From: a virus
Lineage: Duplodnaviria > Heunggongvirae > Uroviricota > Caudoviricetes
Length of the DNA: 39,802 bases
Reading direction: 5' to 3' (one strand)
IMG/VR virus record: IMGVR_UViG_2671180139_000002
Coordinates: 1-39,802 of that record
Made by a program: the position numbers and the translations under genes. Shown here one piece after another: positions 13,935 through 30,489 of the stretch; the stretch's first letter is position 1; every line of letters begins with the position of its first letter. The notes under the pieces are model-generated. The model was not told where the DNA came from. It ran no database searches and was given only the letters and a program-made list of their open reading frames with translations.

Positions 13935-15197
13935 TCACAGAGAAAGTCCGAGGATCGTCACCTCACGAACCGGGAATTCCAGGTCGATGCAGTAGCCGAC
14001 GGCGTCGGCCGGATGCTCGTAGCCGGCGGATTTGTCCACCTCGCGCGTGCCCGGCTTGTAGATCGTCTGCTCGAAAGCGGCGATCGCGTGCTTGCACTTG
14101 CTGTCGACCCGGAGGCGGATCTGTCCGTCACCGGACTGGAACATGCGGTTCACGGCGTTGATACGATCGGCAACCTTCGGATGCTTGCGGCGGTACTTCA
14201 GACGCTTGAAGCCAGCCTCGCGAAGAATGTCCAGGTCGGATTCGCCGCGCGAGTGTCCGCGGTTGGCGCCGGCGGGATCGGGATAGAAGGTGGTCTGTCC
14301 CATGTGCCGGTAATAGCGCCGGGAGATCTCGTTTGCCGTCTCCTGGGTGTTCGAGCCGAACAGGATCGCCTCATCGACGATCCACACCTCGCCGTTCTCC
14401 TGCTGCTGCATGATGACGGACGACATCGGGTCGATATTGAAGTCCTGACCAACCCAGATCGGCAGCTTCGGATTGAAGGCGTAGTCCCCGACGTGAATCT
14501 TGCGATCGAAGGCATGGTAGACGCGACCGGACATGGTCTCGAAGGACGCCTCGAACTCCTGTCGAAAGCTCTTCTCGTCCATGTCGCCGCGCGCGGCCTC
14601 GATCTCCTCCTTCGGAATGAAGGGCGAAGTGATCGTCGGAAACTGCCAGGACTTCCACGGGTTGAGCCGGCGCTGACCCTTCTTGGTCACGTAGTGATCG
14701 CCGCGCTGACCCAGCATGTAAAGGTCGTAGAGCCAGTTGAACGACTTCGGCGTGCCAATGATGAGCACGTCGCCGCGCGTGGAGGCGAGCGTCGGGCGCA
14801 GGACCTTGTACCAGGTGTCCTCGCGGATATCCTGGGCTTCGTCGATGATCAGGTGATTAAGGCCGACGCCGCGCAGGGTATCGGGCTTGTCTGCCCCCTT
14901 CAGCTCGATGCGGGTGCCGTTGTGCAGGCGGATCGACATGCGCGTCTCGTTGACGCTCTGGATCCACGCGCGCGGGATCGCCTCGCGCAGCTCGTCCCAA
15001 AGGATCGAGCGCGCCATGCCGTAGGTCGGCGCGACGTACCAAATGAGCTGCTTGGGCTTCGATGCTTTCCGGCAGATCGAGATCTTGGAAAGCTGCGTCT
15101 TGCCCCAGCGGCGTCCGGCGACCACCACCTTGAAGCGGCGGTGGTCCCTGAAAACTGTTCTCTGTCCCTTGTGTAGTGTGAGAGTGTGAGCGGTCAC
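13935..15197 (-). CDS. terL: Terminase large subunit
   Basis: Walker A GRRWGKT, Walker B LIIDEA, GTPK coupling motif, nuclease GQDFN and HPADA. Confidence 0.95.
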   Translation of the reverse strand: MTAHTLTLHKGQRTVFRDHRRFKVVVAGRRWGKTQLSKISICRKASKPKQLIWYVAPTYGMARSILWDELREAIPRAWIQSVNETRMSIRLHNGTRIELKGADKPDTLRGVGLNHLIIDEAQDIREDTWYKVLRPTLASTRGDVLIIGTPKSFNWLYDLYMLGQRGDHYVTKKGQRRLNPWKSWQFPTITSPFIPKEEIEAARGDMDEKSFRQEFEASFETMSGRVYHAFDRKIHVGDYAFNPKLPIWVGQDFNIDPMSSVIMQQQENGEVWIVDEAILFGSNTQETANEISRRYYRHMGQTTFYPDPAGANRGHSRGESDLDILREAGFKRLKYRRKHPKVADRINAVNRMFQSGDGQIRLRVDSKCKHAIAAFEQTIYKPGTREVDKSAGYEHPADAVGYCIDLEFPVREVTILGLSL

Positions 15198-15864: not shown

Positions 15865-15970
15865 GGACGTGGCAATGCCCAAAGCCGCGCGTTCAAATAT
15901 ATAATACACAGTTAGTAGTCTCCACGTATATACATTATTTGAACGCGCGGCTTTGGTCATCACCACGTCC
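15865..15970. repeat. Inverted repeat with 35-bp arms (3 mismatches) and a 36-bp AT-rich spacer, upstream of terS
   Basis: 15865-15899 pairs with 15936-15970; the core CCAAAGCCGCGCGTTCAAATA is a perfect 21 bp. Confidence 0.9.
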
Positions 15971-16251
15971 TATGCTTCTATATTGGTTTCGTCTTTCCGG
16001 AAATGCTTGTAAGCCAGCAGCGTTGGCTTGATGAACAGCTTCCCGGAACGGTATTCCTTCTCCACCATGTTCCACTTCACGAGGAACCGGATGGAGCACT
16101 GCACCGCCTGCTTGGTCACCTCGGCGCCGTAGGAGAGCTTTTCCTTGAGCTCTGCCAGACTCAGATGCTCTCCGGCGTGGGCGGCGGTCAGGACGAGCGT
16201 CATGATCTCTTCCTGCTTCGGCGTGCGGTTGAATTCACCCCAGGCGCCCAT
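15970..16251 (-). CDS. Small winged-helix DNA-binding protein
   Basis: 93 aa from an ATG overlapping the GNAT stop (TGATG); LSLAELKEKL...TKQAVQCSIRFLVKWNMVEK. Confidence 0.65.
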   Translation of the reverse strand: MGAWGEFNRTPKQEEIMTLVLTAAHAGEHLSLAELKEKLSYGAEVTKQAVQCSIRFLVKWNMVEKEYRSGKLFIKPTLLAYKHFRKDETNIEA

Positions 16252-17207
16252 CAGTGCAGGATCCTCGGCACGGACGCGTCGCCGGGGATGAAACCTCCAG
16301 TGAACAGGAAGGGCGCGTTCGGCGCCTGGTTGTCGAAGGCGGTCAGCGGCAGACGATCGGGAATGTCGCGCCCCGCGTCCGGGTTCTTCCAGACACCGTA
16401 CATGGGCGAAGCCAGCACGATCTGCTGCAGGGACTTGATGACGGTGCGAGCCGACATGGCATCGACGCGCCCCTGCCCCTTGTCGCGGTTGTTGCCGGTC
16501 TTCTCCAGCGCCGAGTGGCGATAGTAGAAGTCCTTGCACTTCTGCAGCAGCAGCTCGCGCTCGATCTCCGGCTTCGCTTCCAGTTCCGCCAGGATCGCCT
16601 CGAAATCCTGCGGGCTCGCCTCAAAATGGGCCCGGAAGAACTTCAGCCCCTGCTCGTACTTGGCGGCATTCAGCGGCCGCACGAATGAGAAGCCGGCCTT
16701 CTGGCCGAAGAGGTTGAACTTCGACATGGAGGACTGGATCTCCATGTAGGTGTTCCCCTCCATCCGCGAGACGAGATTCATCATCCGGTAGCCGCAGCCG
16801 ATGCCGCGGTACATCGTGTCGACCACGAAGCGCGAGATGACGCGGAAATTTCCGTTGATGAAGTTGTAGCGCCGGGTGTTGGTGAAGCGCGTGTCGTTGC
16901 CGTCGGGCTTCAGCTTCGGGAAAGCGATGTGTCGCTCCTTCAGCAGGCCCTTCGGGTTCGCCGTCACCAGGACGCCGATCGTCTCGCCGTAGAGCGTCAG
17001 CTTCCAGAAACGCGGCCCGATCGGCAGGTTCTCCGCCTTGTAGTGAAGATCGTGCAGCAGATTCCAGTCGCTCTTGTCACCCCGCTCGACAATCATGTCG
17101 TCAAGCAGCGAGAAATGCGCTCTGGGCGCATCCACACGCTCGATGAGTGTCGTCGTAGCACCCGAATCGAAATGCTCGCTGGTGAGCTCCTGAAGCGTTT
17201 CTGTCAC
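16251..17207 (-). CDS. GNAT-fold acetyltransferase-like protein (possible DNA-modifying enzyme)
   Basis: ISRFVVDTMYRGIGCG matches GNAT motif A (acyl-CoA binding). Confidence 0.7.
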   Translation of the reverse strand: MTETLQELTSEHFDSGATTTLIERVDAPRAHFSLLDDMIVERGDKSDWNLLHDLHYKAENLPIGPRFWKLTLYGETIGVLVTANPKGLLKERHIAFPKLKPDGNDTRFTNTRRYNFINGNFRVISRFVVDTMYRGIGCGYRMMNLVSRMEGNTYMEIQSSMSKFNLFGQKAGFSFVRPLNAAKYEQGLKFFRAHFEASPQDFEAILAELEAKPEIERELLLQKCKDFYYRHSALEKTGNNRDKGQGRVDAMSARTVIKSLQQIVLASPMYGVWKNPDAGRDIPDRLPLTAFDNQAPNAPFLFTGGFIPGDASVPRILH

Positions 17208-17554
17208 GACAGCACCAGCACGAGCGCGAACGCGGCCAGCGCAATCGCCGCCAAGACGAGACCGCGAATCCAGCCTTTCAGATCACCCCACGAGAAGATG
17301 CCGGCAATCGCATCCAGCGAGCCGGAAACGCTGTCGCCCTCGTTGAGCTCGATCACGCGCCGGCAATGATCCTTGTCCAGGAAATCCAGGCAGCGGCACA
17401 TGACGCAGCCCCAGCGTTTTCCGGTGAGCCAGGCTTTGGCGGAGCGCGAGGAGATCGTCTCGTCCGGGTAGCCGCCGGCGAGCGTGTTGGCGAGCTGGTC
17501 GATGGAAACCAGCACGTTCAGGATGTAGCGTCCGCAGGAGGTAACCGCGGGCAT
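17204..17554 (-). CDS. Conserved phage hypothetical protein with a C-terminal hydrophobic segment
   Basis: NVLVSIDQLANTLAGGYPDETISSR...C..LD..HC pattern; TGATG-coupled to the HAD gene. Confidence 0.65.
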   Translation of the reverse strand: MPAVTSCGRYILNVLVSIDQLANTLAGGYPDETISSRSAKAWLTGKRWGCVMCRCLDFLDKDHCRRVIELNEGDSVSGSLDAIAGIFSWGDLKGWIRGLVLAAIALAAFALVLVLS

Positions 17555-18015
17555 CAGTAGTCGCCCTCGCATACCTGCAGGCAGCGGACACCGTTCTCGC
17601 GCCACATCGCCGTCACCGACTTGCGATCTTCCACGGCGAAGAGCGGCTCAAACCCGGTTTCCCGGATCTGATCGAGCATCTCCTTCTTGATCTCCGTGTC
17701 GGGCCGCCGATCGCGGCGGTCACGCATGAGCAGGAAATTGTAGGTGATGCCGAACTTCTTCAGCCAGGCGGAGGTCATCTCCAACTGGTCGTCCTTGCGC
17801 CCGGTGCAGATGAACACCGGCACATGGGCTGACATCGCGTTGTTGAGGAGCTTGATCTCCTCGTTGACCGTGTCGTCGGCGGCCGCGGCCAGGAAGGCTT
17901 CCCAGTCGGGCGCCTGGTCGATGGCGGAGTTCGTGCGGCCGCCCAGGAGATGCACGCGGTGCTCAGCGTTCGACAGGGTGCCGTCGATATCCATGATGAT
18001 GCAGGGGCGGCTCAT
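17554..18015 (-). CDS. HAD-family phosphatase (T4 Pnk 3'-phosphatase-like)
   Basis: DIDGT motif I, TGR motif II, EDR..V..MWR motif. Confidence 0.85.
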   Translation of the reverse strand: MSRPCIIMDIDGTLSNAEHRVHLLGGRTNSAIDQAPDWEAFLAAAADDTVNEEIKLLNNAMSAHVPVFICTGRKDDQLEMTSAWLKKFGITYNFLLMRDRRDRRPDTEIKKEMLDQIRETGFEPLFAVEDRKSVTAMWRENGVRCLQVCEGDY

Positions 18016-18656
18016 TTCGTCTCCACGTCGACGCGCTCGCGGAAGCGCTTGGTGATGGTGAGGTCCGGTCCCAGTTCGTCCTTGAGATCGGTGTGGGTTG
18101 TGGCGACCATCAGGGTCTTGCCCTGCGCGCGAGCGACCTTCTGGACGTTGAAGGCGATGACCTTCGCGGTGACGCGGTCGAGCACGGCGCCAAATTCGTC
18201 GGCGATCCAGACGTCGGCGCCGGATTCCATGACCTTGGCAAGCTTCAGGCGGTAGCGCTGACCGTCGGAGAGCTCAGATGGCTTGCGGATGTAGATCCAG
18301 GCGTCGGAAATGCCGGCCTTGGCGAGAAGATCGGCGGCTTCGGTCGTGGTACGGCCCACGAGCTCGATCACCGGACGATCCTCCAGCTCGATTTCGTTCA
18401 GATCCGCGACCTTGAGCCCGGCGGCCCGCATCTGGGCGCTGAGGTCCTTGAGGAGCAGCGACTTGCCCGAGCCCGACTGCCCGGTGATGTAGACGACATC
18501 GTCGGCGCGCACGTCGAGCGCCAGGTTGTCGTAGACCACGAATTCCTTGTCGGAGAGGCCCAGGCCGAAGCCTTCGGCGATCTCCAGGACGCGCGGTGTC
18601 CGCTCCACCGACGAGGTGAACTTGCGATTGATCGTGTAGGTCATCAGTCCACCCAA
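18012..18656 (-). CDS. Stand-alone ABC-type ATPase
   Basis: GQSGSGKS Walker A, LSDGQ signature, ADEFGA Walker B, H-switch THH; no permease nearby. Confidence 0.85.
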   Translation of the reverse strand: MGGLMTYTINRKFTSSVERTPRVLEIAEGFGLGLSDKEFVVYDNLALDVRADDVVYITGQSGSGKSLLLKDLSAQMRAAGLKVADLNEIELEDRPVIELVGRTTTEAADLLAKAGISDAWIYIRKPSELSDGQRYRLKLAKVMESGADVWIADEFGAVLDRVTAKVIAFNVQKVARAQGKTLMVATTHTDLKDELGPDLTITKRFRERVDVETK

Positions 18657-19018
18657 TCCAGGTCGGGATCGTCAAAGCCTTCCGGCGGCTGGCTCGGATC
18701 GACCCCGTCGGCGAGCAGCAGCAGATCGGACTTCAGAAGTTCGAGGTCTCCCACCATGCGCAGCGGGCCGACCTCCGGATCAGGCGGAAGCACGAGATAG
18801 TGGACGAAGCCGCGGTCCCGGGCATTCCAGACCACCGCTGCGAAGCCCTGTAGCTCCCCTGTGTCGACGCGCTCCTTCAAGCGGGCGAGTGCATCCTGGG
18901 TCGCTATATCGGGCCGAGCGGGGTCTGGTTCGTGAACGGGCGGCGGAGGCACGTACACATCGCGGGTCGCGATGCTCAGAACCTTCCGATCCTCCGCAGT
19001 CTCTGGCGAGTCCGTCAT
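18644..19018 (-). CDS. Hypothetical protein
   Basis: Fills the operon gap; phage-like codon usage. Confidence 0.6.
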   Translation of the reverse strand: MTDSPETAEDRKVLSIATRDVYVPPPPVHEPDPARPDIATQDALARLKERVDTGELQGFAAVVWNARDRGFVHYLVLPPDPEVGPLRMVGDLELLKSDLLLLADGVDPSQPPEGFDDPDLDWVD

Positions 19019-19035
19019 GAGTCAGTCCTGACTTT
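19018..19035. promoter_or_regulatory. Palindromic motif copy
   Basis: TGAGTCAGTCCTGACTTT, spanning a stop-start gap. Confidence 0.6.
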
Positions 19036-19699
19036 AGATGTAGCCTGCGGAGTTGAGGTGCTCGAGGAAGGCGTCAGCCCCCTTCTTGCCCGTTTCCGCC
19101 TCAAGCTTGGTCATGAAAGCCCGGATGCGCCGGGACTGGAGGATCGTCACGCGCTTGAAGCCGAAGGCGTCGCCGATGGGTGCCGCGCTCTCGTCGATCT
19201 CGCCGACCTTCTTGGCGTTTTCGGTCTTCTGGGTCTCCACCGCGGCGCTGATGTCATCCACGAACGCGCCGAGATCGAGATCGCCGATATCGTCGGCCGC
19301 GAACTCGATCTCCTTGAGATCGAAGCCCGTCAGATCCATGTCGAAGCCGTTCTTGAGGAGCTCGGAAAGCTCGTCATTGATCAGCTTCATGTCGTAGTCG
19401 GTGGAGGCGACGCGGTTGTCGGCCAGGCGCAGGGCATTCGCCTGTTCCTTGCTGAGGTCGTTGCGAACAACCACCGGGACCTTCTTCAGGCCCAGCTTCA
19501 GCGCGGCAAGGCGACGCCCGTGACCGGCGATGATCACATAGTCCCGGTCGACGACGATCGGCTGCGACCAGCCGAGACCCTGAATGGCCTTGGCGAGCTT
19601 CTCGACCTGCTCGGGGGAATGGATCTTGGCGTTTCCGGCGTAGGGCTTCAGGCTTTCGAGCGGCAACAGCTCGACCGAGATCTTGTCACTCGTCGTCAT
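19034..19699 (-). CDS. ParB/Srx N-terminal domain protein
   Basis: LKPY..NAKIH...PIVVD...IIAGHGR.LAALKLG. Confidence 0.85.
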   Translation of the reverse strand: MTTSDKISVELLPLESLKPYAGNAKIHSPEQVEKLAKAIQGLGWSQPIVVDRDYVIIAGHGRRLAALKLGLKKVPVVVRNDLSKEQANALRLADNRVASTDYDMKLINDELSELLKNGFDMDLTGFDLKEIEFAADDIGDLDLGAFVDDISAAVETQKTENAKKVGEIDESAAPIGDAFGFKRVTILQSRRIRAFMTKLEAETGKKGADAFLEHLNSAGYI

Positions 19700-19877
19700 T
19701 GTCTTCCATCCTGGAGAGGTAGGTCATGAGCTCGCGCTCGTCGGGCAGATCGTCGTCGATCCGCTCCTCGAAGAATTCGCCGGCGCCGCAGCGCACGCAG
19801 AGGGGCGAGGGGCGCGAAGGCGAGTAGAAACGGCAGTCCCGGCAATCCTCAAACTTCGGCTTGAACCGGGTATTCAT
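19686..19877 (-). CDS. Small Cys-rich (CxxC...CxxC) protein
   Basis: Overlaps both ParB-like genes; four cysteines. Confidence 0.6.
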   Translation of the reverse strand: MNTRFKPKFEDCRDCRFYSPSRPSPLCVRCGAGEFFEERIDDDLPDERELMTYLSRMEDNDDE

Positions 19878-20545
19878 GCCTCGTCGGTCTCCTCGAGACC
19901 TTCCGCGCCCATCACGAGGTGGATCAGCGCGTCGCCGGCATTGGTGAGATCGTCGGAAGAGGTGTAGCCGAAGCGCTTCTGGGTCTGGGCGATCAGCGCA
20001 GTGAGGCGCTCGGAATCGCCGATCGACACCTTGAAGCGCATCACCGTGTGCGTTTTGGGTGCCTTTGCCGCTGGCGGCTCTTCGATTTCGGCTGACTTGT
20101 CGAAGTTTTCGTCTAACTCAAGCTCGTCCAGCGCTATGTCTACGCTTGAGAAGATCGAAGTGATGTCTGCGTCGGTGTAGGGAAGGAACTGTTGAAGGTC
20201 GTCAGCCGTGCCGATATCCTTCAGAAGGTCTGCCAAAGACAGCGTGTCGTCCGCGCCGTAGCGAGCATTGTCGGCGAGCGAGATCTCCTTGGCCTTCTGG
20301 TCATCGATCGGTCCCAGGTTCATGACCGGGACTTCCTTCAGACCGAGGCGCTGCGCCGACTCCCAGCGATGCTCGCCGCCCAGAATCTCGTAATCGTCCC
20401 CTACCTCACGCACGATGATCGGCTTGAAGAAGCCGAAGCGCTTGATCGCCTCGTCGAGCTTGGTCTCGTTCTCCGGCGAGACGAAGTTCGTGTTCCAGTC
20501 ATTGGCCCGCAAAAGGGCGGGATCGAGAGAAAGGGCTTCAGCCAC
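19874..20545 (-). CDS. ParB/Srx N-terminal domain protein
   Basis: WNTN....KPIIVRE...YEILGGEHRW. Confidence 0.85.
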   Translation of the reverse strand: MAEALSLDPALLRANDWNTNFVSPENETKLDEAIKRFGFFKPIIVREVGDDYEILGGEHRWESAQRLGLKEVPVMNLGPIDDQKAKEISLADNARYGADDTLSLADLLKDIGTADDLQQFLPYTDADITSIFSSVDIALDELELDENFDKSAEIEEPPAAKAPKTHTVMRFKVSIGDSERLTALIAQTQKRFGYTSSDDLTNAGDALIHLVMGAEGLEETDEA

Positions 20546-20554
20546 CTGGCTTTC

Positions 20555-20584
20555 CTATGATAAGTCAGCGCTTACTTATCATAG
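20555..20584. promoter_or_regulatory. Extended 30-bp palindrome containing the motif, at the divergent ParB/helicase junction
   Basis: CTATGATAAGTCAGCGCTTACTTATCATAG. Confidence 0.8.
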
Positions 20585-20603
20585 ATCCTCAGGCTGGCAA
20601 GCG

Positions 20604-20621
20604 GAAATCAATAATGACTTA
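20604..20621. promoter_or_regulatory. Palindromic motif copy over the helicase start codon
   Basis: GAAATCAATAATGACTTA. Confidence 0.6.
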
Positions 20622-22200
20622 TCATGTGACCATCGCCGCGAACGCCACTGTCGCCAAGCTCATCAATCCTGAGAAGGAGGTGAAGGACATCGTTTCCGAG
20701 CTTCTGTCCTATCAGGTGGAGGGCAAGGAGTTCATGAGTGGCTTCCAGAGCGGCACCTGGGATGGTCGCTCCTCGTTCTTCTCACACCGCACGGCAAGCT
20801 TCCCGGCGGGCTTCGTCCATCTGGTGCATTCCGAGCTGACGCGCCGCGGCCACAAGGTGAACCTGGTGCGCAAACCCGCACCGGCACCGCTCGGGCCGGA
20901 GAACCCGATCGTCGACGAGTTCGGCAACGACGATCCCCGCTACGACTACCAGCTCAAGGCTTTGCGCCAGGTCGAGCGTCACGGCCGCGGGATCGTGCAG
21001 ATCGCGACCGGTGGCGGCAAATCCAAGATCGCCAAGCTGCTCGTCGCCCGCTATCGGCGCATGACGCTGTTTCTGACCACCCGCGGCGTTCTCATGTACC
21101 AGATGAAGGAAGGCTTCGAGTCCACCGGCTTCAATGTCGGTGTTGTGGGCGATGGCGTCTGGTCGCCGGTGAAGGGCGCCAACGTCGGAATGGTGCAGAC
21201 GCTGGTTGCCCGGCTGCAGGAGCCGGATCTCGACGCCGAGGTGCGCAAGGTCATCGAGGAGGTGAACCTCAAGGAGATCAAGGCCACCAAGGATCAGATT
21301 CTGGAGCTTGCCCAGCAGCGCTTCCGTGAAAAGCAGATCACGCGCGCCCGCACCATCAAGTTCCTGGAGATGGTCGAGGTCGTCATCGGCGAGGAAGCGC
21401 ACGAGGCCGGCGGCAACAGCTATTTCGAGATCCTGCGCCACTGCAAGAACGCCAACATCCGGGTCGCTCTGACTGCCACGCCGTTCATGCGCGACGACGC
21501 CGAAGACAACATGCGGCTGATGGCGGCGTTCGGACCCATCCTAATCAAGGTGAGCGAGGACACGCTGATCAAACGCGGCATTCTCGCCCGGCCCTACTTC
21601 AAGTTCGTGGACTCGCGGCCGCATCCAAAGCTGCGCAAGACTTCGCCTTGGCAGCGCGCCTATCAGCTCGGCTACACCGAGAACACCTTCATGCACGAGG
21701 ACATCATCAACGATGTGATCCTGGCGGCACAGCACGGGCTCCCGGTGATGACGCTGATCCAGCGCAAGCAGCACGGGCTCACGCTGAAGAAGGCGATGCA
21801 GGAAAAGGGCCTGAGGGTCGAGTTCATCCAGGGCGAGAACGATCAGGACGCTCGAAAGGCGGCGCTAAAGAAACTCGGCAGCGGCAAGATCGACGTTCTG
21901 ATCGGCACCACCATCCTCGATGTCGGTGTCGACGTTCCGGCGGTGGGCCTGGTGCAGCTCGCTGGCGGCGGAAAGGCAGAGGTCGCCCTTCGTCAGCGCA
22001 TCGGCCGCGGACTTCGCTCCAAGAAGCCGCCGTTCCCGAATGTGGCGTTCATCGCGGACTATTCCAGCAACGTCAACATCACCCTGCGCGATCACACTCG
22101 TCAGCGCCGGGCCGTCGTGGATTCAACGCCGGGCTTTGCTGAGAACGTCGTGATCGATTTCGATTGGTCGATCTTCAAAAGCATGAAGAAGGCTGCGTGA
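20614..22200 (+). CDS. Superfamily 2 (DExH-like) helicase
   Basis: ATGGGKS, EEAH, TAT, T.ILDVGVDVP and QRIGRGLR motifs; ATG 20614 preferred. Confidence 0.9.
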   Translation: MTYHVTIAANATVAKLINPEKEVKDIVSELLSYQVEGKEFMSGFQSGTWDGRSSFFSHRTASFPAGFVHLVHSELTRRGHKVNLVRKPAPAPLGPENPIVDEFGNDDPRYDYQLKALRQVERHGRGIVQIATGGGKSKIAKLLVARYRRMTLFLTTRGVLMYQMKEGFESTGFNVGVVGDGVWSPVKGANVGMVQTLVARLQEPDLDAEVRKVIEEVNLKEIKATKDQILELAQQRFREKQITRARTIKFLEMVEVVIGEEAHEAGGNSYFEILRHCKNANIRVALTATPFMRDDAEDNMRLMAAFGPILIKVSEDTLIKRGILARPYFKFVDSRPHPKLRKTSPWQRAYQLGYTENTFMHEDIINDVILAAQHGLPVMTLIQRKQHGLTLKKAMQEKGLRVEFIQGENDQDARKAALKKLGSGKIDVLIGTTILDVGVDVPAVGLVQLAGGGKAEVALRQRIGRGLRSKKPPFPNVAFIADYSSNVNITLRDHTRQRRAVVDSTPGFAENVVIDFDWSIFKSMKKAA

Positions 22201-22207
22201 CCTCGCT

Positions 22208-22420
22208 ATGTCCCGTCAGATGACACGCAACAAACCCAATCCGGTCCATGTCTTCGAGCGCGACGGCGCCTCCAAGCTCAACAGCGAGCATCTGGCCCGC
22301 GAGAACGACAGGCTCGGCCGTGAGAACGCCGATCTGCGCCGGCGGCTGAAAGCGGCTCAGGAGCGGCTGCGCTTCGTCGGCGACCCGCCGCCCGAGGAAG
22401 ACCGACTCCGTTTTCACTGA
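22208..22420 (+). CDS. Small coiled-coil hypothetical protein
   Basis: Follows the helicase stop by 7 bp. Confidence 0.55.
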   Translation: MSRQMTRNKPNPVHVFERDGASKLNSEHLARENDRLGRENADLRRRLKAAQERLRFVGDPPPEEDRLRFH

Positions 22421-22466
22421 TCTGACGCTCCGCTGATCGCGGGGCGTTTCTGCTCGTCCGTGATCA

Positions 22467-22484
22467 TCAATAAATATTGACTTA
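22467..22484. promoter_or_regulatory. Palindromic motif copy at the dNMP kinase start
   Basis: TCAATAAATATTGACTTA. Confidence 0.55.
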
Positions 22485-23062
22485 TGAAAGACAAAGACAT
22501 GCAGCTCCCGCGTTTGATTGGCATCTGCGGCAATCCTCGCTCGGGCAAGTCCGAAGCGCAACGCATCCTGAAAGAGCAGTACGGCGTGCAGCCGGTGGAT
22601 GATGGCTTCGCGCTCCGGCACTTCGCCGTGCGTCACCTGGGTCTCTCCTGGGAAGACGTGCAGACGCAGGAGGGCAAGGCCCGCTACACCGATATCCTCG
22701 GCGGCACCTGGCAGAACCGGGAGATCCTGGGCGAACTCGGCAACAAGCTGGAAGGGATGTTCGGAGAGCACATCATGCCCTTCATGGCGACCCGCGGGCT
22801 GCCGGCCGAGGGCAGCTTCTCCTTCGGGTCCGTTCGTAAGCTGCAGGGCGAGTTCTTCCGGGCTCAGGGCGGCGTGGTGATCGAGATCAGCAATCCGCTC
22901 GCGCCGCCTTCACCCTACGACTTCGACTGGTACTCACGCGAGGCTGTCAACTTCACCATCGAGAACGACGCGCTGGCCCGCGGGCTGCCCGCCGAGGAAG
23001 CCAGGCTCGATCTGGCGGCGAAAATTCATGAGCTGGCGCTGCGGATGGTTGAAAGCTCCTGA
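22484..23062 (+). CDS. Deoxynucleoside monophosphate kinase-like P-loop kinase
   Basis: LIGICGNPRSGKS, resembling T4 gp1-type dNMP kinases. Confidence 0.7.
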   Translation: MKDKDMQLPRLIGICGNPRSGKSEAQRILKEQYGVQPVDDGFALRHFAVRHLGLSWEDVQTQEGKARYTDILGGTWQNREILGELGNKLEGMFGEHIMPFMATRGLPAEGSFSFGSVRKLQGEFFRAQGGVVIEISNPLAPPSPYDFDWYSREAVNFTIENDALARGLPAEEARLDLAAKIHELALRMVESS

Positions 23063-23514
23063 TGTCGATCCTGCAGGATATTCCGGTCTCCGTTCAGCTC
23101 GACCTCAACAACCTCTTCGTCGGTGAGAAGCTGGGTCATGGCTGGCATCGGGAGGTCTACGCCCATGCGCTGGACCCGAGCCTCGTCATCAAGCTGGAGA
23201 CCAAGGACAGTAAGCAGTTCTGCAACATCCACGAATGGGCGATCTGGGATGAGTTCAAGGACGATCCGGAGCTTTCCAAGTGGTTCGCGCCTTGCGTGGC
23301 GATTTCTGCGAACGGCTCGGTCCTGGTTCAGAAGCGAACCGGCCCGATCGCGAAGCGCCCTGCCCGCATCCCCAGCCTGCTGGCAGATACCCACATCAAC
23401 AACTGGGGCACCTATAAGCGACGGGCCGTGATGCACGATTATGGCAACCACAACCTGTTCGATGTCGCCCGCAAGAAGTGGAAGATGGTCGACCTTCCCG
23501 TGGACACGTACTGA
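23062..23514 (+). CDS. Minimal protein-kinase-like fold protein
   Basis: LGHGWHREVY, VIK, DTHINNWG and DYG motifs. Confidence 0.65.
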   Translation: MSILQDIPVSVQLDLNNLFVGEKLGHGWHREVYAHALDPSLVIKLETKDSKQFCNIHEWAIWDEFKDDPELSKWFAPCVAISANGSVLVQKRTGPIAKRPARIPSLLADTHINNWGTYKRRAVMHDYGNHNLFDVARKKWKMVDLPVDTY

Positions 23515-23587
23515 CCCGGGCTGGCCCTTTAACCGAACGTTAGTTAACGATGTGGCGTTTTAGCGAAAACGCGCGAGCCGCCACATC

Positions 23588-24232
23588 ATGCCTGTATCTC
23601 TCAGCATCGCCTGTCTTTCGCAGAAAGGCGGCGTCGGAAAATCGACACTCTCCCGCCTGATCGCCCGCACCTATGCCGCCGCGGAGTGGCGCGTGAAGAT
23701 CGCGGACTTCAATCCCAAGCAGAAAACCAGCGTCGACTGGGTCGCCCTCCGCCTGGAGCAGGGTGTCACCCCGGAGATCGCCGCGGAAGCCTTCAACTCC
23801 GTCAAGACGGCCCTCAAGCAGGACTACGATCTGATGGTGTTCGACGGGCGCCCGGATTCCGAGCCCACAACCCTCGAGATCGCCAAGGAGGCGGATCTCA
23901 TCGTGCTGCCCTCCGGCGTCTCCCTGGACGACATGAAGCCCCAGGTCCTCTTCGCCCACGAGCTCCGCGCCCGCGGTATCGACGCCAAGAAGATCATGTT
24001 CGTGATCAACAAAACGGCCGACAGCCAGGTCGCGATCGCGGATGCACACCGGTATCTCTCCGACGCCGGCTACAAGGTCGCCAAGAACGACCTGCCGATG
24101 AAGACCGGCTACCAGATCGCCCAGAACAGCGGCCGAGCCGTCTCGGAGACGGGCTTTCCCACGCTCAACGAGCGCGCCGAGGCGCTTGCAGGTGAAATCG
24201 TCGCCCGCGCGACGGAATTGACGGGTGAATGA
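23588..24232 (+). CDS. parA: ParA family partition ATPase
   Basis: KGGVGKST deviant Walker A; DFN..Q; FDGRP. Confidence 0.92.
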   Translation: MPVSLSIACLSQKGGVGKSTLSRLIARTYAAAEWRVKIADFNPKQKTSVDWVALRLEQGVTPEIAAEAFNSVKTALKQDYDLMVFDGRPDSEPTTLEIAKEADLIVLPSGVSLDDMKPQVLFAHELRARGIDAKKIMFVINKTADSQVAIADAHRYLSDAGYKVAKNDLPMKTGYQIAQNSGRAVSETGFPTLNERAEALAGEIVARATELTGE

Positions 24233-24489
24233 CGATGGCGAGCAATGTTCCCAAGCCCCCAAGGGCACCCAGGCAGCGTCTGATGGTCTCGGCGCCGACG
24301 CCGACTTTCACGCCCGACAACCTGTCGAAGTCACCTGAGGAGCTGAAGGATCTCAACTTCAAGGTCTCGCCGGATCTGCATCGCGACTTCAAGTTGACGG
24401 CGACCGCCTGGGGCATGTCAATGAAGGAGCTTCTCGAGGCCGCCTACAAGGGCTGGGTGGAGAAGCACGGGAAGTTCCCAGGGGAGTGA
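24229..24489 (+). CDS. Small RHH-type centromere-binding partner (type Ib ParG-like)
   Basis: Coupled to parA; flexible N-terminus, then LNFKVSPDLHRDFKLTATAWGMSMKELL. Confidence 0.75.
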   Translation: MTMASNVPKPPRAPRQRLMVSAPTPTFTPDNLSKSPEELKDLNFKVSPDLHRDFKLTATAWGMSMKELLEAAYKGWVEKHGKFPGE

Positions 24490-24732
24490 TGATGCGGGGG
24501 TCTTGGTGACGATCTCAATGGGTGGATGCCCGTGTAGTGGCAACCCGAATTGTTGATTTGCTAATCGGCAAATCAGCTATAGTTCACATTGGACGACATT
24601 CGAGAGGGCATCCCAATGCGGAGTGCAGCGCTGCGGCGGCCAGCGTCATCCACGTCCAGGCCGGAAAGACAAAGACCTTCCATCGGGCACAACTCCATCT
24701 GGAAGACCTCTTCGGAGGGAAAGGCAGGGAGA

Positions 24733-25068
24733 ATGTACGCAATCGCATTCGACATGGATCAGGAGGCGCTAGCTGCGCACTATCCAGGTAATTCTCCTAA
24801 CAACGCTTATGAGTCCGTGCGCCGAGTTTTGGAGCGATTCGGTTTTCATCGGCAGCAAGGAAGCGTTTATTTCGGCAACGATACCGTGACGCCGGTCACA
24901 TGCGTCATGGCAGTGCAGGCGATGCAGAAACGGTATCCTTGGTTCGGGAAGGCCGTTTCCGACATTCGGATGCTTCGCATCGAAGAGCACAGCGATTTGC
25001 TTCCGGCGATTGCGGAACTGGAACTTGAATTAGAAGAGCCAGACGCGAATTTTGCTACCTCAGCTTAG
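24733..25068 (+). CDS. vapD: VapD family (Cas2-like) nuclease
   Basis: MYAIAFDMD...AY..V...L...GF.RQQGSVY...VSDIRMLRIEE..DL. Confidence 0.88.
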   Translation: MYAIAFDMDQEALAAHYPGNSPNNAYESVRRVLERFGFHRQQGSVYFGNDTVTPVTCVMAVQAMQKRYPWFGKAVSDIRMLRIEEHSDLLPAIAELELELEEPDANFATSA

Positions 25069-25186
25069 GTGCTGTGGCGTGCAAGAGAACGAGCCGCATT
25101 TCTGCGACAGGGCGCCCACAGGAGAAGCATAGCCGTGTTGTCGTTCAGAGTATGACCGTTATCGGGGCAGAGTTCGTCTGCTTGAG

Positions 25187-25702
25187 CTAAAAGCCTGCTT
25201 CCTTGCTGGCCTTGTCAATTGCGGGAAGCCAAGTGCGCAGGCTTTTATCCTTCAATTGAAGGACGCTTTCACGATCAAGGATCGAGTCCTTGTCAACAAG
25301 GACCGATTCGCTCATTCCAATAGCTCGCATATTGCGCTGGGAATCCGTCTCGTTTGCCAGACGCAGCAACCCGCGTCCTGTATAATACGCAAGGTCCGTG
25401 CAAAGCCCTTTAGCTTTGTCGCTCTTCTCATAATCTCCGAGAGCAATCCCTTCGATGTAGCAGGCAGCTTCCCAAATGCGGAACCGGGTCTTCCCTTCAG
25501 CCCATCCTAAGGGAGATAGGGGAAAAAGCCATTTCCAGCACGCAATAAGCATCCACCCGAAAGCTCCATAGATGGACACTATTCCCCCGACGGTCAAAAG
25601 CGGCCAGCCGATCCAAGGCGGCAGGGTCGGGATCGTCATGGGAAGAACCCACGAGCAAAAGGTGATTCCCCGCAATGCAATCGTTTTGTGCCAAGCCCTC
25701 AT
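25187..25702 (-). CDS. Accessory membrane-anchored hypothetical protein (start uncertain, possibly 25639)
   Basis: N-terminal hydrophobic segment; lower GC than flanking phage genes. Confidence 0.5.
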   Translation of the reverse strand: MRAWHKTIALRGITFCSWVLPMTIPTLPPWIGWPLLTVGGIVSIYGAFGWMLIACWKWLFPLSPLGWAEGKTRFRIWEAACYIEGIALGDYEKSDKAKGLCTDLAYYTGRGLLRLANETDSQRNMRAIGMSESVLVDKDSILDRESVLQLKDKSLRTWLPAIDKASKEAGF

Positions 25703-26134
25703 ACCGACAGGTTTGCATTACGACTGACTTCATTGCGAGTCATCTCCGCGCGAGCTGCGATCAGGTGGTTCCGAATATTCAAATTGAGCGAACGAGCTCC
25801 TGAGCGCCGGAGATGTCGGGAATGTTGCGGGATGTTGGGTGAGCCAAGGCTAGGAACCGCGGGTTCCTGCGGGCGCCAAGGATAGGTCACCGGAAGAGAG
25901 GCGAGCCAGAAGGCATCCCCCTGGCACACGCAAAATTTTTCTAGGACATCGACCCCTGTGGCGGGGAAGTCACGCGCAAGCACACCACCAATCCCACTCG
26001 CAACGCGCTCGCATGTGACTCGAAAGTCACACGCTCTAGAACGCTTTTAGAAGCTCACTGACAGCGATTTAGCGAATGAGCTACGAGCGTAGCAGAGAGC
26101 GCTAGAAACGCTCTCTGTGTCGCTCTGTGATCGT

Positions 26135-26722
26135 TTATTGCAGCTTCGCAAGCAGCGCTTTCGTCACGTCGCTTTCTGTGTTGAGCGTGTAGCAGATCGC
26201 ATTGCTTTCGTCGCGCGTTTCGCGAAGCACATCGAACATTTGCAGCGCATTGATTGAAGATGACGACTGCGTTGAAGCAGTATTAGCAGCGACGTGTTTC
26301 ATGTACTTAACAATGATCTTTTCGCGCTTTGCATCGCTCTTGCAAGACATAGAGCACGCGCTGATAGCGTCTTTGTGTGTCATGCGAAGTTCTGCGTTCT
26401 GAAATGCTTGCGCAGTCAGAAGAATAGCGCGCGTGTAGTGATTAAGCTGCGCTGCGCTTGCGCAAGCGCGAGCAACGTTGATGACTTTTTCAGAGGCATA
26501 CACGTTGAAGCGTGCATTGCTACGTTCTGCGCGATTGATGAAAGTAGCATCGACGTTTGCAGCGAGCATGATGCTTGCGATTGCGTCGTGATCGACGCTC
26601 TTTTTCATCGTCGCGAGCGTGTTTTGCATCGACGTGTTTTCGCTATTCTTAGCGCTTTCGTAAGTAGCGCGAGCGTCGAAAGCGGCGATGAGCGAAGCGC
26701 GGTAGGCAGTGACGTCGGACAT
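26135..26722 (-). CDS. Hypothetical 195-aa protein lacking Gly/Pro/Trp; paralog of 28638-29636
   Basis: ATG 26722 preceded by GAGAG and a sigma70-like promoter; aligns by eye with the 332-aa protein (LAANxD, NVYA, TAxTQxSS). Confidence 0.85.
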   Translation of the reverse strand: MSDVTAYRASLIAAFDARATYESAKNSENTSMQNTLATMKKSVDHDAIASIMLAANVDATFINRAERSNARFNVYASEKVINVARACASAAQLNHYTRAILLTAQAFQNAELRMTHKDAISACSMSCKSDAKREKIIVKYMKHVAANTASTQSSSSINALQMFDVLRETRDESNAICYTLNTESDVTKALLAKLQ

Positions 26723-26766
26723 GGTGTTCTCTCTGTGTTTGTTATGTGTCGTTATCGACAAGATGC

Positions 26767-26794
26767 AGAATAGAGCTTTGACAGAACGGGTCAA
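26767..26794 (-). promoter_or_regulatory. Sigma70-like promoter TTGACC-N16-TATTCT
   Basis: -35 at 26789-26794 and -10 at 26767-26772, about 45 bp upstream of ATG 26722. Confidence 0.5.
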
Positions 26795-27110
26795 GCACAA
26801 GAACGCATAGCTGTGATGCATAAATATGTGAGATAGTGCGTTGACAGAGATAGCGCAAAATGCAATTGTGTTTTCAGAGATTGAGAGGAGCGAACGATGA
26901 AGCGAACGGATGACACGAGCTGACCGAAACGGCGCAAAAGCCACAGTGGCCCAGGCGCCACATCCCAGCCCCGATCGGCACCGCGCCAGACCGCGGACCC
27001 CAGTGGCTCTTCCGCCACAACACCCCAGCCCTCCTGCCCACGGCGCCCCGAGGCGCCCCATGTCCGGCCCGCGGTTTATGCCATGGCTCTCCATGGCGCC
27101 GTTCCGCGGA

Positions 27111-27135
27111 TCCCACTGACCCAAGCCGTACCTAA
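27111..27135. repeat. 25-bp direct repeat copy 1 (TCCCACTGACCCAAGCCGTACCTAA)
   Basis: Identical to 28507-28531. Confidence 0.95.
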
Positions 27136-27334
27136 AATCCGCGCCGCCCGGAGATTTCGCCCTTCCCGGGCCATGAAATCCAACCCATGCGTGCTCATGG
27201 CGAGAAGCTGGCGAGACCGTGGCGAATATGTGTCCCTGAGAGCCCCATGGGGCACCGGGGAGCAACCGGCACCATGGAGCCCCGTAGACGCGCTCCGAAG
27301 AGAAGGGGCGCCGTAGCACCCCTCCCCTGTCGCG

Positions 27335-27682
27335 TCAGATCGCGACGTTCAATCCCATCTCGATGGCGAGCGCTGCAGCGGCGTCGTTGGCGCGCTGCGT
27401 CTTGGAGCGGCGGCGAAGAATGGCGACCCGTTCGCGCTTGCGCTCCGAGATGAGCCTACGCGCTTGCTCCCGCACGTCCTGCATCGTGATGCCCTCGGGG
27501 CAAGCACGCTCGAAGCGAACCCAGAGCTTCGCCCACTGATCGCGAGCCCGATCGCAGAGCAGCTCCTGCTCCGCCGTCTGGCGCACGCCGAAGACGATCT
27601 CAAACGAGCTGTCCATGAACTCGATGTAGTCAGCGGCGCGGGTGATGACAGAGGGGGCGACGAGAGTGATGCGGGACGACAT
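27335..27682 (-). CDS. Hypothetical protein (115 aa)
   Basis: GGAG RBS upstream of ATG 27682. Confidence 0.65.
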   Translation of the reverse strand: MSSRITLVAPSVITRAADYIEFMDSSFEIVFGVRQTAEQELLCDRARDQWAKLWVRFERACPEGITMQDVREQARRLISERKRERVAILRRRSKTQRANDAAAALAIEMGLNVAI

Positions 27683-27934
27683 TTGCTTGCTCCGTGTTCG
27701 TGTCGTTTTCGACATCGTCACTGTCGCGCGTCCGCTTCTGGGATGCGGGCGGGAGCGGATGGCGCGTGCGCGCTCCGGAGACGCTTGGGAGGTCATGGCC
27801 GCGGGAGACGGCGATCGCCGGCGCCATGGTCATCCATGGAGCGCCACGGCCTGAGTTTCACGGACCATGGCGGCCTGCGGAGAAAAGACCTGGCCTGGCC
27901 TCGAGAGACCAGACCGGCCTATGGTGCGTGGACC

Positions 27935-28165
27935 TCAGTAGCCCCAGGGGCTCAGATCGGGGATGCGCCCGAACCGTCGGTGGTACTTGCGATAGGTCTT
28001 GGCGATCAGCGTCGCCTCCGAGAGCATCATGGAGCGTTGCTCATGGGCGATGTGGCGCACATAGGCGCCGAACTCGTCGCTCCAGGTCTGAACCCGAAGC
28101 TGCCACCGGAAGAGCTTCCTGGGGTCGCGCTCCAGGCGAACGATGATGGAGGTCCGCGCGCTCAT
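27935..28165 (-). CDS. Hypothetical protein (76 aa)
   Basis: TGATG-coupled to the 38-aa upstream ORF. Confidence 0.55.
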   Translation of the reverse strand: MSARTSIIVRLERDPRKLFRWQLRVQTWSDEFGAYVRHIAHEQRSMMLSEATLIAKTYRKYHRRFGRIPDLSPWGY

Positions 28166-28281
28166 CAGCGGACGCTCGCGAGGACGATGACGAACGTCAG
28201 GAAGAGCACGGTGCAGGCGAACAGATCGGAGTTCACATAGCGCCAAAGCATCAGGTCGGCGGTGTTGAGGAACTTCTTCAT
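28165..28281 (-). CDS. Small 38-aa membrane peptide (MKKFLNTADL...FLTFVIVLASVR)
   Basis: Below the ORF-track cutoff; GGAG RBS, hydrophobic C-terminus, stop overlaps the next ATG. Confidence 0.55.
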   Translation of the reverse strand: MKKFLNTADLMLWRYVNSDLFACTVLFLTFVIVLASVR

Positions 28282-28294
28282 CTGCTATCTCCGT

Positions 28295-28312
28295 CCAGTC
28301 AGTGTTGACTGT
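28295..28312. promoter_or_regulatory. Palindromic motif copy
   Basis: CCAGTCAGTGTTGACTGT, upstream of ATG 28281. Confidence 0.6.
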
Positions 28313-28506
28313 CAGAGTGTCGCGCAGCTCGAGACGGGATGCGGTTGGCACCTGGTGGGATCGCAAGTGGCTTCCCATGGAGCTCCTGGGAGCCCCGTGG
28401 AGCGCGTTTGTGCCTTGGAGCCCCACCGATGCCCTCGGGACGCCATGGAACCCGCCCTGGGGCCCCTGAGTCGCGGCAGAGCCATGGAGGAACGTCGTTC
28501 CTCGGG

Positions 28507-28531
28507 TCCCACTGACCCAAGCCGTACCTAA
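28507..28531. repeat. 25-bp direct repeat copy 2
   Basis: Identical to 27111-27135. Confidence 0.95.
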
Positions 28532-28595
28532 CCGCGCACGCGACCGTACCTGGTTTCCGCCTGGCGCGGCAGCTCCATGGGATCCTCGTGCCGCG

Positions 28596-28620
28596 AAAAA
28601 GGGACGCCGAAGCGTCCCTT
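28596..28620 (-). terminator. Intrinsic terminator
   Basis: AAGGGACGC-TTCG-GCGTCCCTT with a T-tract on the - strand, just after the stop at 28638. Confidence 0.85.
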
Positions 28621-28637
28621 CTCCATCCCTCCTTTCG

Positions 28638-29636
28638 TTACGCTGCGAGGAGCTCCTCGATCTTCCGGGCGACCGGGGTATCGGTCACGCGGTAGACGGG
28701 GTTGCGGGTCGAGCCCTGGACCGAGACGGCGCCGATCGTCTGCAGGGCCTGCATGGTCGAGGAGGCTTGCGTGGGCGCGGTCGAGGCGGAGACCGTGTGC
28801 GAGACCAGGTGCTTCCTGAGCGCCGCTTCCACGCGGACCTTGTCGGAGGCTGCAGCCTTGGCGAGCTCACCGGTGAAGTCGAGGCCCGCGGCCCGGAAGC
28901 GGAAGAGCGACTTCATGCAGGCGATGTTGATGGCGTTGGTCAGCGCCCCACCTCCGAGCATGGAGGCGATGTCGGCGAACTTGCCGATGGCGTAGACGTT
29001 GTAGCGGGACCCGTCATGGCGCGACCCGTTCATGAAGGCGGGGTCGATGTTGGCGGCGAGGAGGACCCTGGCGACACCGGGGCGGACCATCTTCTGCCGG
29101 GCCGACTTGAGGGTGCGCTGAATGTTGGCGTTGTCCTCGTTCTTCCACTTCTCGAAGTCGGCGCGCTCGTCGATCTCCTTGCCGATGGCGTGCAGCATGG
29201 TGTCGACCTCTTCCTCGTCGACGGCGTCGAGCATGGCGTCGAAGGTCTCCGGCTCGTTGTTGCCCTCGGCCTGCTCCTCCTGGACCTCGTGGATGGCCTC
29301 GGGTTCCTGGACCTCGATGGCCTCGAGGTGGAGGACCGCTGCTTCCAGGTCCTTCTCGGAGACGGGCTCGTCGCTCTCCGGAGCGGCTTCCGGTTGGGCC
29401 TCGGTCTCCAGGGTCGCTTCGGCGACTTCCTCAGCCGAGAGCTCGATGGTAGCAGGTTCGTCCTGGGGCGCAGCGGTGTCGGCGCTCTCCGGAGCGATGA
29501 TCTCCATCGCGTCTTCGGCGATCGTCTCGACGACGGGCTGACCCTCGGCAACGATCTCGGAGACCGCGTTGATGAGTTCGGCGTCGCTCAAGGCGGCGAC
29601 GGTGGCGGATGCGATGTTTTTCTTGCGACGTGTCAT
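28638..29636 (-). CDS. Hypothetical protein with an acidic N-terminal extension; paralog of 26135-26722
   Basis: High-GC3 codon usage, own terminator, homology to the island gene. Confidence 0.85.
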   Translation of the reverse strand: MTRRKKNIASATVAALSDAELINAVSEIVAEGQPVVETIAEDAMEIIAPESADTAAPQDEPATIELSAEEVAEATLETEAQPEAAPESDEPVSEKDLEAAVLHLEAIEVQEPEAIHEVQEEQAEGNNEPETFDAMLDAVDEEEVDTMLHAIGKEIDERADFEKWKNEDNANIQRTLKSARQKMVRPGVARVLLAANIDPAFMNGSRHDGSRYNVYAIGKFADIASMLGGGALTNAINIACMKSLFRFRAAGLDFTGELAKAAASDKVRVEAALRKHLVSHTVSASTAPTQASSTMQALQTIGAVSVQGSTRNPVYRVTDTPVARKIEELLAA

Positions 29637-30489
29637 AGTATTCTAGTCCTCTGCGTTGCTCAGCGCTCGTTTGCGTCGCTGACAAGTATCAATTTACTGA
29701 TTGAGGCTAGGGGTACTACTGGAACGTAGTGGGACGTTTTCTTTCTTATTTCGCGCCATGGTGTACACACGCGCGCACGTACTCTATATATAAGCAATCA
29801 CCTGCGCCGCCCGACCATGGTATGACTTGAAGTCCCATGGTTCACCTTGGTGAGGATCTCCACGCCGGATGATGGCTTTCCTCGGAAGTGTGGATGAGGA
29901 CCTCCATGGCACCCCGAGGCAGATCATGGCTCTCCATGGTCTCGAGGCTATTCCGGGAATCCTGGAATGAGGACAATCCATGGGGCGCCATGCCGATGAG
30001 GCTTTCGCCATAGAGGTTCATGGGGCGTGGCGCGTGTGGATCGCCATAGTGAGGACGCCCGTGGAAGCGCGGAAAGTCCGTACCAGGTCCCGCCTCTACC
30101 GGGACATGCGTCCGTACCTAATTTCCGGCTGAGCGGCGAACCATGGAGAAATGCCGCCAAAAGAAAAGGCGCTCCGAAGAGCGCCTTGAGAGTTGAAGCG
30201 CGGGTGTCGAGGCCGCGCAAACACAGAGTGTCCGGCGAAGCTGCTCGGTGAGCGTCGTTCGCTGAACAAGATCGTTTATAGCTGATCGAACGAGGCTGTC
30301 ACGAGGGAGAAGGCGGATTTTCGAGGATGAGGCTTTCAAAGAGGACGTCGCCGGTCCCTCCTCTAGATCCACACCCTCACGCATCTATTCCCCACACACG
30401 GGCACACCTCTGTCCCTCTATACGCGGTCACTCTCTCTTGGGGTCTCTGGTGCGCATTCCGGAGAGTCTCTACCTCTTTGGGTATGGTG

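Follow-up and report, generated by a model that had tools for sequence, protein, structure and literature searches.

The DNA analysed here is a stretch of 39,802 nucleotides from a Caudoviricetes record (IMG/VR record IMGVR_UViG_2671180139_000002), referred to below as the window. It makes up the opening 39.8 kb of C37, a contig of 109 kb in a 4.2-Mb alphaproteobacterial assembly. C37, with a G+C content (GC) of 61% against 66% for the chromosome, is a phage-plasmid as judged by its gene content, i.e., terminase, portal, and capsid genes, ParA with a ribbon-helix-helix (RHH) protein, and RepC. Its family includes the Rhizobium phages RHEph10, B1VFA, V1VFA-S, RHph_X66, N1_10, and Y2_11, and the plasmids pLM21S1, pAMS5a, a Shinella plasmid, Rhizobium beringeri pRlX6, and a Methylobacterium oryzae plasmid (PMC12509600, PMC5537653, PMC4447125). 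For B1VFA, a terminal repeat of 3.6 kb is on record, its location not being stated (PMC12509600). Three features of the window are considered, namely, a leftward transcription unit that is almost devoid of the dinucleotides CC and GG (hereafter the desert), blocks of CCATGG boxes upstream of this unit and of three further leftward genes, and a cluster of ParB, ABC ATPase, and GNAT genes near the terminase gene. An earlier sequence-only reading had pointed to all three.

The desert and its gene

The desert comprises a whole transcription unit together with its upstream control region (25994-26887), and holds 8 CC/GG in 893 bp instead of the ~90 expected at 51% GC. Within it, a 501-bp stretch (25994-26495) contains none at all, and gaps of 189, 98, and 65 bp come after. 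The desert has no equal in the 4.2-Mb genome: outside C37, the longest CC/GG gap is 79 bp, and no other dinucleotide class yields a gap as long as CC/GG. The unit is read from a sigma70-like promoter on the minus strand, TTGACC-16-TATTCT (26767-26794), the -35 element of which carries two of the few CC exceptions; in relatives, the -35 elements (TTGACC, TTGCTCC) hold the sole CC of the unit. A CC/GG-free unit behind such a promoter had been claimed by the sequence-only reading, and this claim holds. Ahead of the ATG, at 8-12 nucleotides, a GG-free purine run of the AGAGAGA type (26726-26740, minus strand) takes the place of a ribosome-binding site; an (AG)n run in the Shine-Dalgarno position is common to all lineages, including those that have lost the CC/GG ban. 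Past the stop codon, two hairpins can be read on the minus strand (26011-26120), which may act as a terminator lacking a U-tract. The desert stops ~10 nucleotides beyond the second hairpin, and from there on the CC/GG density is normal.

The gene itself (26135-26722, minus strand) encodes a protein of 195 amino acids that is helical towards the N-terminus, ends in a winged helix, and has no glycine, proline, or tryptophan (G/P/W), since a ban on CC and GG means that encoded proteins cannot contain these three residues. In the AlphaFold model (predicted local distance difference test, pLDDT, 93), residues 85-195 match winged helices of the MarR/PadR/histone-H1 type (Z 7-8.1, root-mean-square deviation of 2-3 Å over 72-84 residues), which suggests a DNA-binding regulator. 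Neither this protein nor its long paralogue belongs to a family in Pfam, PHROGs, NCBIfam, or PADLOC, and a family-profile search of the genome contigs gave no confirmed match. The protein was also considered as RepC, which was ruled out as RepC sits at 84.8 kb of C37. The long paralogue (28638-29636, minus strand) has 332 amino acids, a normal composition, and an acidic N-terminal extension, and shares 33% identity over 147 amino acids with the desert protein (E 2e-21), so that both forms of the family, short and long, are present in the window. The family of the desert protein counts 412 clusters at 50% identity. G/P/W are absent in 85 of 120 close homologues, the short forms being mostly free of them, and their complete absence is retained in homologues down to ~25% identity; the long forms have a normal composition with 12-20 G/P/W in the shared domain. 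Across 46 diverse homologues, 14 residues are invariant and the reading frame is intact. The desert proteins of the Rhizobium phages are homologous to that of the window (hhalign 97%), their gene being inverted.

Selection at the level of the protein or of transfer RNA (tRNA) would offer an explanation for this composition, if the product had to be made without Gly, Pro, and Trp codons, e.g., when the corresponding tRNAs are cleaved or acetylated. The proteins indeed lack exactly these three residues, and relatives have tRNA genes beside the desert (Rfam and tRNA scans of the window gave no matches). However, the purge also covers untranslated leaders, spacers, promoter-proximal DNA, and 3' regions, as well as CC/GG at codon junctions (out of frame) and the NCC and NGG codons of other amino acids, all of which contradict an explanation by the three amino acids, and it is considered very improbable.

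The desert is a shared trait of the family. Exactly one desert, 0.85-1.7 kb in length, is present in 12 of 13 related alphaproteobacterial elements of 110-122 kb. Scans of the whole record gave one desert each for pAMS5a, B1VFA, V1VFA-S, pLM21S1, pRlX6, the Shinella plasmid, X66, Y2_11, RHEph10, and an IMG/VR element of 52% GC, and a partial scan gave one for N1_10. In a Methylorubrum element the desert is degraded, and the M. oryzae plasmid has none. The bearers range over Rhizobiales, Methylobacteriaceae, a marine contig, and Pseudomonas phages. In the Pseudomonas phage nickie, a 1137-bp desert (NC_042091.1 103937-105074) surrounds gp019, which encodes 184 amino acids with no G/P/W and has no homology to the desert family detectable by hhalign; on the circular map it lies ~10 kb from the ParB-ABC-GNAT block. 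Several relatives carry a second small gene inside the desert, likewise without CC/GG. These second genes show no evident mutual similarity and nevertheless obey the ban, which makes it a property of the locus rather than of a single protein. Stenotrophomonas phage BUCTxx99 and SSU5 lack a strict CC/GG desert, and that of Xanthomonas JGB6 is weak. Beside the repressor gene of SSU5 (NC_018843.1 95.2-96.9 kb), AGG/CCT is missing over 626 and 572 bp and CCC/GGG over 688 bp; these gaps are moderately long, a weak signal of ~2x the expected maximum.

A loss of CC and GG could also arise as a by-product of mutation, if a CC-specific deaminase or a transcription-coupled mutator had eroded them. The lower GC of the deserts would fit (0.51 against 0.61 for the contig in C37; 46-53% against 59-65% across deserts), and so would the coincidence of the tract with a transcription unit. 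On the other hand, CG and GC are over-represented in the desert (rho 1.8-2.0) and neither CT/AG nor TC/GA is in excess, which indicates selected avoidance and not decay by deamination. The conserved frame and invariant residues of the 46 homologues, and the persistence of zero counts to 25% identity, argue in the same direction. Moreover, deamination of the non-template strand would hit sense CC hardest, the opposite of what is observed (see below). Erosion by mutation is thus regarded as hardly credible, and the desert is an avoidance that is conserved in relatives, far beyond chance and beyond mutation bias. A full-text literature search for CC/GG-free genes returned only papers on vertebrate ultraconserved elements and nucleosomes, and the trait is apparently undescribed.

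Strand polarity and the proposed reading of CC/GG

The avoidance is not symmetric with respect to transcription. All eight exceptions in the window are CC on the sense strand, and sense GG (i.e., template CC) is absent over ~930 bp. In strict deserts, the exceptions within the unit lie at or just upstream of the -35 element, with zero downstream of the -10. Lineages in which the ban is partly relaxed regain sense CC first, with 26 CC against 2 GG in the pooled data where ~2:1 is expected from the same proteins resampled with the codon usage of each element (binomial p ~0.002, for lineages that were pooled though related and an expectation taken from simulated codon usage). In the fully relaxed M. 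oryzae clade, CC has returned to 0.9 of expectation and GG to 0.5-0.6. The ban is stricter on sense GG than on sense CC, and this polarity implies that the factor probably reads CC in the template strand or GG in the transcript, and not a symmetric duplex site.

A symmetric reader of the CC:GG step has nevertheless to be weighed, e.g., a restriction-like nuclease, a CRISPR system with a matching protospacer adjacent motif (CC for type I-F, NGG for type II-A), or a silencer that coats DNA. Both strands are purged in the desert, as is upstream non-coding DNA, and site avoidance is demonstrably at work in these phages: GTAC has 0 copies in 10 of the 13 elements (115-122 kb, several hundred expected; 153 copies in C37 and 137 in the IMG/VR element G006), and GGTACC is absent in 13 of 13. 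C37 further has 0 CACGTG, 2 TGGCCA, and 2 GTGCAC, and in many relatives TGGCCA, GGGCCC, and CCCGGG are at or near zero. Judged from these counts, the losses are lineage-specific footprints of restriction avoidance. They also show that these phages can remove a word entirely from the genome if one hit suffices to kill. Against a duplex reader, cleavage or a CRISPR hit would be lethal wherever it fell, so that shielding 1 kb would bring no benefit; the avoidance depends on the direction of transcription; and hosts that range from Rhizobiales to Pseudomonas, with a marine contig in addition, are unlikely to share one such system. A duplex reader is therefore judged unlikely.

The rest of the genome bears on the kind of harm that is avoided. 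In coding sequences, rho(CC) is 0.71-0.76 and rho(GG) 0.74-0.80 in desert-bearing elements, as compared to 0.79 and 0.82 in the M. oryzae plasmid and 0.79 and 0.83 in the host. Since CC/GG outside the desert (rho 0.72-0.80) is only slightly below the host level (0.79-0.83), the factor would be harmful only within the operon, acting in cis on expression and not on the survival of the genome. The values of the desert bearers are 0.03-0.07 lower, a difference that could stem from the same pressure acting faintly across the whole genome, or from differences between hosts.

The explanation that we put forward, and to which we would give about an even chance, is that the desert is an exempt operon that escapes an in-cis factor reading GG/CC. 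The desert would be a self-contained operon with its own promoter, a GG-free substitute for the ribosome-binding site, a winged-helix regulator, and hairpins at its end, joined in relatives by a variable small second gene. A factor that reads a two-letter word would disturb the expression of ordinary transcription units in cis, while elsewhere the word would be tolerated by the DNA. Purifying selection on the nucleic acid itself would then keep sense GG out strictly and CC slightly less strictly, and the regulator cassette could still be expressed where the remainder of the 110-kb element, and possibly the host as well, could not. An escape from a CC/GG reader had already been proposed in the sequence-only reading, and it stands as an interpretation given the extent of the purge from promoter to terminator, its conservation to ~25% identity, and the compliance of the cargo genes. 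As to the level at which the word would be read, a lesion, mark, or nick at the C of CC in the DNA template is slightly favoured, and an RNA-level reader of GG is given somewhat less than an even chance.

Several points weigh against an exempt operon, in addition to the pooling of related lineages in the polarity test. CC/GG-poor DNA often reaches 100-450 bp upstream past the core promoter, so that a model based on RNA alone, or one based on template lesions, would need a second, unmapped promoter. As winged helices are widespread (Z ~8), the assignment of the desert protein as a regulator stays presumptive. Furthermore, no agent emerged from presence/absence screens, in which no gene tracked the desert, and no gene was found to be uniquely missing from the desert-less M. 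oryzae clade, be it from the pAMS5a or the C37 side.

Two candidates from these screens were rejected. The first, C37 68945-69445, is a spurious antisense open reading frame (ORF). The second, a pair with a GHKL ATPase, is missing from the M. oryzae plasmid and present in the first four desert-bearing elements; it is absent or truncated in V1VFA-S, pRlX6, and the distant G006, all of which have clean deserts. This two-gene module, which lies outside the window (C37 49451-53145), consists of a 786-amino-acid ATPase (HATPase_c_3, weak PADLOC match to TmtA) and a 445-amino-acid partner, and is variable among the elements, V1VFA-S keeping a remnant of the partner only.

The ParB-ParB-ABC-GNAT cluster and the CCATGG boxes

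Near the gene for the large terminase subunit (13935-15197, minus strand; Pfam Terminase_6C/_3/_6N), and on the same strand, lies the cluster that the sequence-only reading had described as ParB-ParB-ABC ATPase-GNAT, an assignment that is corroborated by Pfam for the ParB, ABC, and terminase proteins and by Foldseek for the GNAT protein. Two proteins in which the ParB N-terminal domain is the sole domain are encoded at 19874-20545 (Pfam ParB_N 8e-14) and 19034-19699 (ParB_N 3e-9). The second has no methyltransferase domain, its PADLOC match being confined to the ParB-like N-terminal part of a model for a fused methyltransferase. The ABC-type ATPase (18012-18656; ABC_tran 3e-13) and the GNAT-fold protein of 318 amino acids (16251-17207) would be the ATPase and acetyltransferase halves of a split pair of the COG2401 type. 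The GNAT protein was missed by the profiles of Pfam, NCBIfam, and PADLOC; its AlphaFold model (pLDDT 79.5) matches GNAT enzymes in Foldseek with a probability of 1.00 (E 6e-5), TmcA, NAT10, and phage Mu Mom being among the matches, language-model features point to Acetyltransf_1 clusters, and homologues bear the JGI name 'ABC-type ATPase with predicted acetyltransferase domain'. The possibility that orf124 (18644-19018) is the GNAT gene found no support. Inside the cluster, a phosphatase of the HAD/PNKP type (17554-18015, minus strand; HAD_PNKP 1e-26), absent from the earlier description, is located between the ABC ATPase and GNAT genes together with orf133. In this slot, pAMS5a, pLM21S1, and RHEph10 carry a DUF2829 gene instead, which one record labels 'MW1434 toxin'.

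A published prediction from comparative genomics holds that a GNAT domain combined with an ABC ATPase attaches an acyl group of uncharacterised type to a DNA base (PMC7824862, section 3.4.7). The cluster is a plausible candidate for a nucleic-acid acyltransferase. With COG2401/MK0520-type proteins, Mu Mom, TmcA, and NAT10, it shares a GNAT fold, here next to an ABC ATPase and ParB-like proteins in a phage. It differs in that the pair is split, with two ORFs between the halves, that its distribution does not track the desert, and that a modification of DNA is only predicted. The split layout recurs in nickie, SSU5, BUCTxx99, and JGB6, and the order helicase-ParB-ParB-ABC-x-GNAT-terminase was found in all 17 genomes examined, these four included. 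The cluster is thus a core module of the SSU5 supergroup.

The arrays to the right of the desert consist of CCATGG boxes and their one-mismatch variants. The window has 26 exact copies, 20 of which lie in 27081-30141 in four blocks, each upstream of one leftward gene. Block A (27081-27272) lies upstream of the desert promoter, in non-coding DNA dense in CC/GG (51-53 per 200 bp); it matches no Rfam family, and its predicted RNA fold (z -2.2) is only marginally better than that of shuffles. Block B (27824-27919) is upstream of orf153 (27335-27796, minus strand), and block C (28375-28575) covers the start of and the region upstream of orf163 (27935-28426, minus strand). Block D (29756-30141), upstream of the long paralogue, has 12 boxes, mostly 10, 20, or 44 bp apart. 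A spacing of exactly 10 or 20 bp is found in 9 of 35 nearest-neighbour pairs, and no long-range helical phase was detected (R = 0.08, not above a jitter null). Relatives show the same arrangement, the box being CCATGG, or CCTAGG in the B1VFA clade; about half of the boxes of each genome lie within 5 kb of the desert, a 5- to 12-fold concentration. The arrangement is kept in the M. oryzae plasmid although the desert is lost. The phased CC/GG arrays of the sequence-only reading are thus confirmed in part: blocks with frequent 10/20-bp spacings exist, but the motif is CCATGG and not generic CC/GG, and a phase over long range is lacking. Lineage-specific palindromes in promoter-proximal blocks resemble sites of protein binding and not targets of a generic dinucleotide mark, and probably serve a sequence-specific protein as operator- or iteron-like sites, through which it would control the four genes read leftward. 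This protein may be one of the winged-helix paralogues.

The similarity to iteron and operator arrays of plasmids and phage-plasmids extends to the specific palindromes, the 10/20-bp spacing, the intergenic position near maintenance genes, and a box that varies with lineage. In contrast to iteron arrays, the replication initiator RepC is 58 kb away from the boxes, and binding here is a prediction.

The three features had been joined in one model, in which the cluster marks virion DNA at CC/GG in connection with packaging, the arrays, as preferred targets, silence flanking early genes, and the mark-free desert gene comes first in transcription and makes the others accessible. Part of the evidence fits. 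The predicted base-acylating pair, GNAT fold and ABC ATPase, adjoins the terminase. Among the enzymes that the GNAT model resembles are TmcA and NAT10, which acetylate cytidine at the expense of ATP, and Mu Mom. Enzymes of the NAT10 type act at CCG in RNA. Stricter avoidance of template CC is what would be expected of a cytosine lesion that hinders RNA polymerase, and the synteny of cluster and desert is conserved, nickie included. A co-occurrence of cluster and deserts had been suggested as a check, and here the relatives speak against the model: the M. oryzae plasmid, BUCTxx99, and SSU5 all carry the cluster and yet lack a CC/GG desert, which is the kind of distribution that the sequence-only reading had itself named as counting against it. 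The persistence of the boxes in the desert-less M. oryzae plasmid, and their being specific palindromes that differ by lineage, likewise disagree with landing pads for a mark. The genome-wide selection against restriction sites that contain CC/GG implies that these sites are exposed to restriction in incoming DNA, which argues indirectly against blanket marking. In addition, no methyltransferase was found in pLM21S1 (PMC5537653), and a winged-helix protein has no obvious means to 'unlock' marked DNA. We therefore consider the full model improbable. With its GNAT fold and ABC ATPase, the cluster is a legitimate candidate for a writer; no comparison ties it to the desert.

A narrower version, held to be just as improbable as the full one, would have the split COG2401-type GNAT and ABC proteins, aided by ParB, acylate cytosine in a CC context. 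The mark on the template would impede the host RNA polymerase, the desert operon would be readable from marked DNA, and the desert-less lineages would have changed either the word of the enzyme or the reading of the mark. The GNAT and ABC proteins of the M. oryzae plasmid are 78% and 83% identical to those of the window, as close as those of desert-bearing pAMS5a, so that a changed specificity is no easy escape. If true, the GNAT and ABC module would be the DNA counterpart of the ATP-dependent formation of N4-acetylcytidine (ac4C) by TmcA or NAT10. As it stands, desert, boxes, and cluster are each real, whereas a single joint system is, on the genomes compared, not borne out by the relatives, and the story of writer, array, and desert should not be carried forward as established.

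Comparison with known systems and neighbouring features

An exempt operon has partial parallels elsewhere. In site avoidance by phages (palindromes), and in mRNAs that lack the words of MqsR (GCU) or MazF (ACA), selection likewise removes a short word that is read by a factor. The desert differs in that its word has two letters, is banned in one unit only and with polarity, costs three amino acids, and has no cognate factor described in the literature searched. The first-step transfer DNA of T5 and the gene 0.3 end of T7 may be analogous as small, separately controlled units that may have to function ahead of, or independently of, the remaining genome; we know of no dinucleotide ban described for T5 or T7. 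Operons of the acr-aca type share with the desert a conserved DNA-binding protein, a strong promoter, and, in relatives, diverse small ORFs downstream. The gene order of the desert is reversed with respect to acr-aca, no homology to anti-defence genes has been shown, and the composition rule has no counterpart there.

A block of genes that forgoes three amino acids implies that a factor reading GG/CC decides whether a gene can be expressed. Finding this reader would reveal a new layer of gene control in phages or of phage-host conflict, and genes meant to escape a GG/CC reader could then be designed by a simple rule. Relaxed lineages, i.e., those of the M. oryzae type and the Methylorubrum intermediate, together with the cultured phages B1VFA, V1VFA-S, RHEph10, and nickie, make the question testable.

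Two further observations concern the surroundings of the desert and its relaxed form. Between the ParA-RHH pair and the desert, the window encodes a VapD/Cas2-like protein (24589-25068, plus strand; Pfam CRISPR_Cas2 5e-6), none of which was seen at the matching position in relatives. As for the relaxed clade, no 3-mer is significantly absent that could be a replacement banned word, in a search of low power. In this clade (M. oryzae plasmid L003, and also L103), the promoter spacer has turned into a C-run (CCCCCGCCGCCCCC), flanked by a TTGCTC -35 that has been retained and a TATTCT -10, at ~40 bp upstream of the -10 element of the short paralogue.

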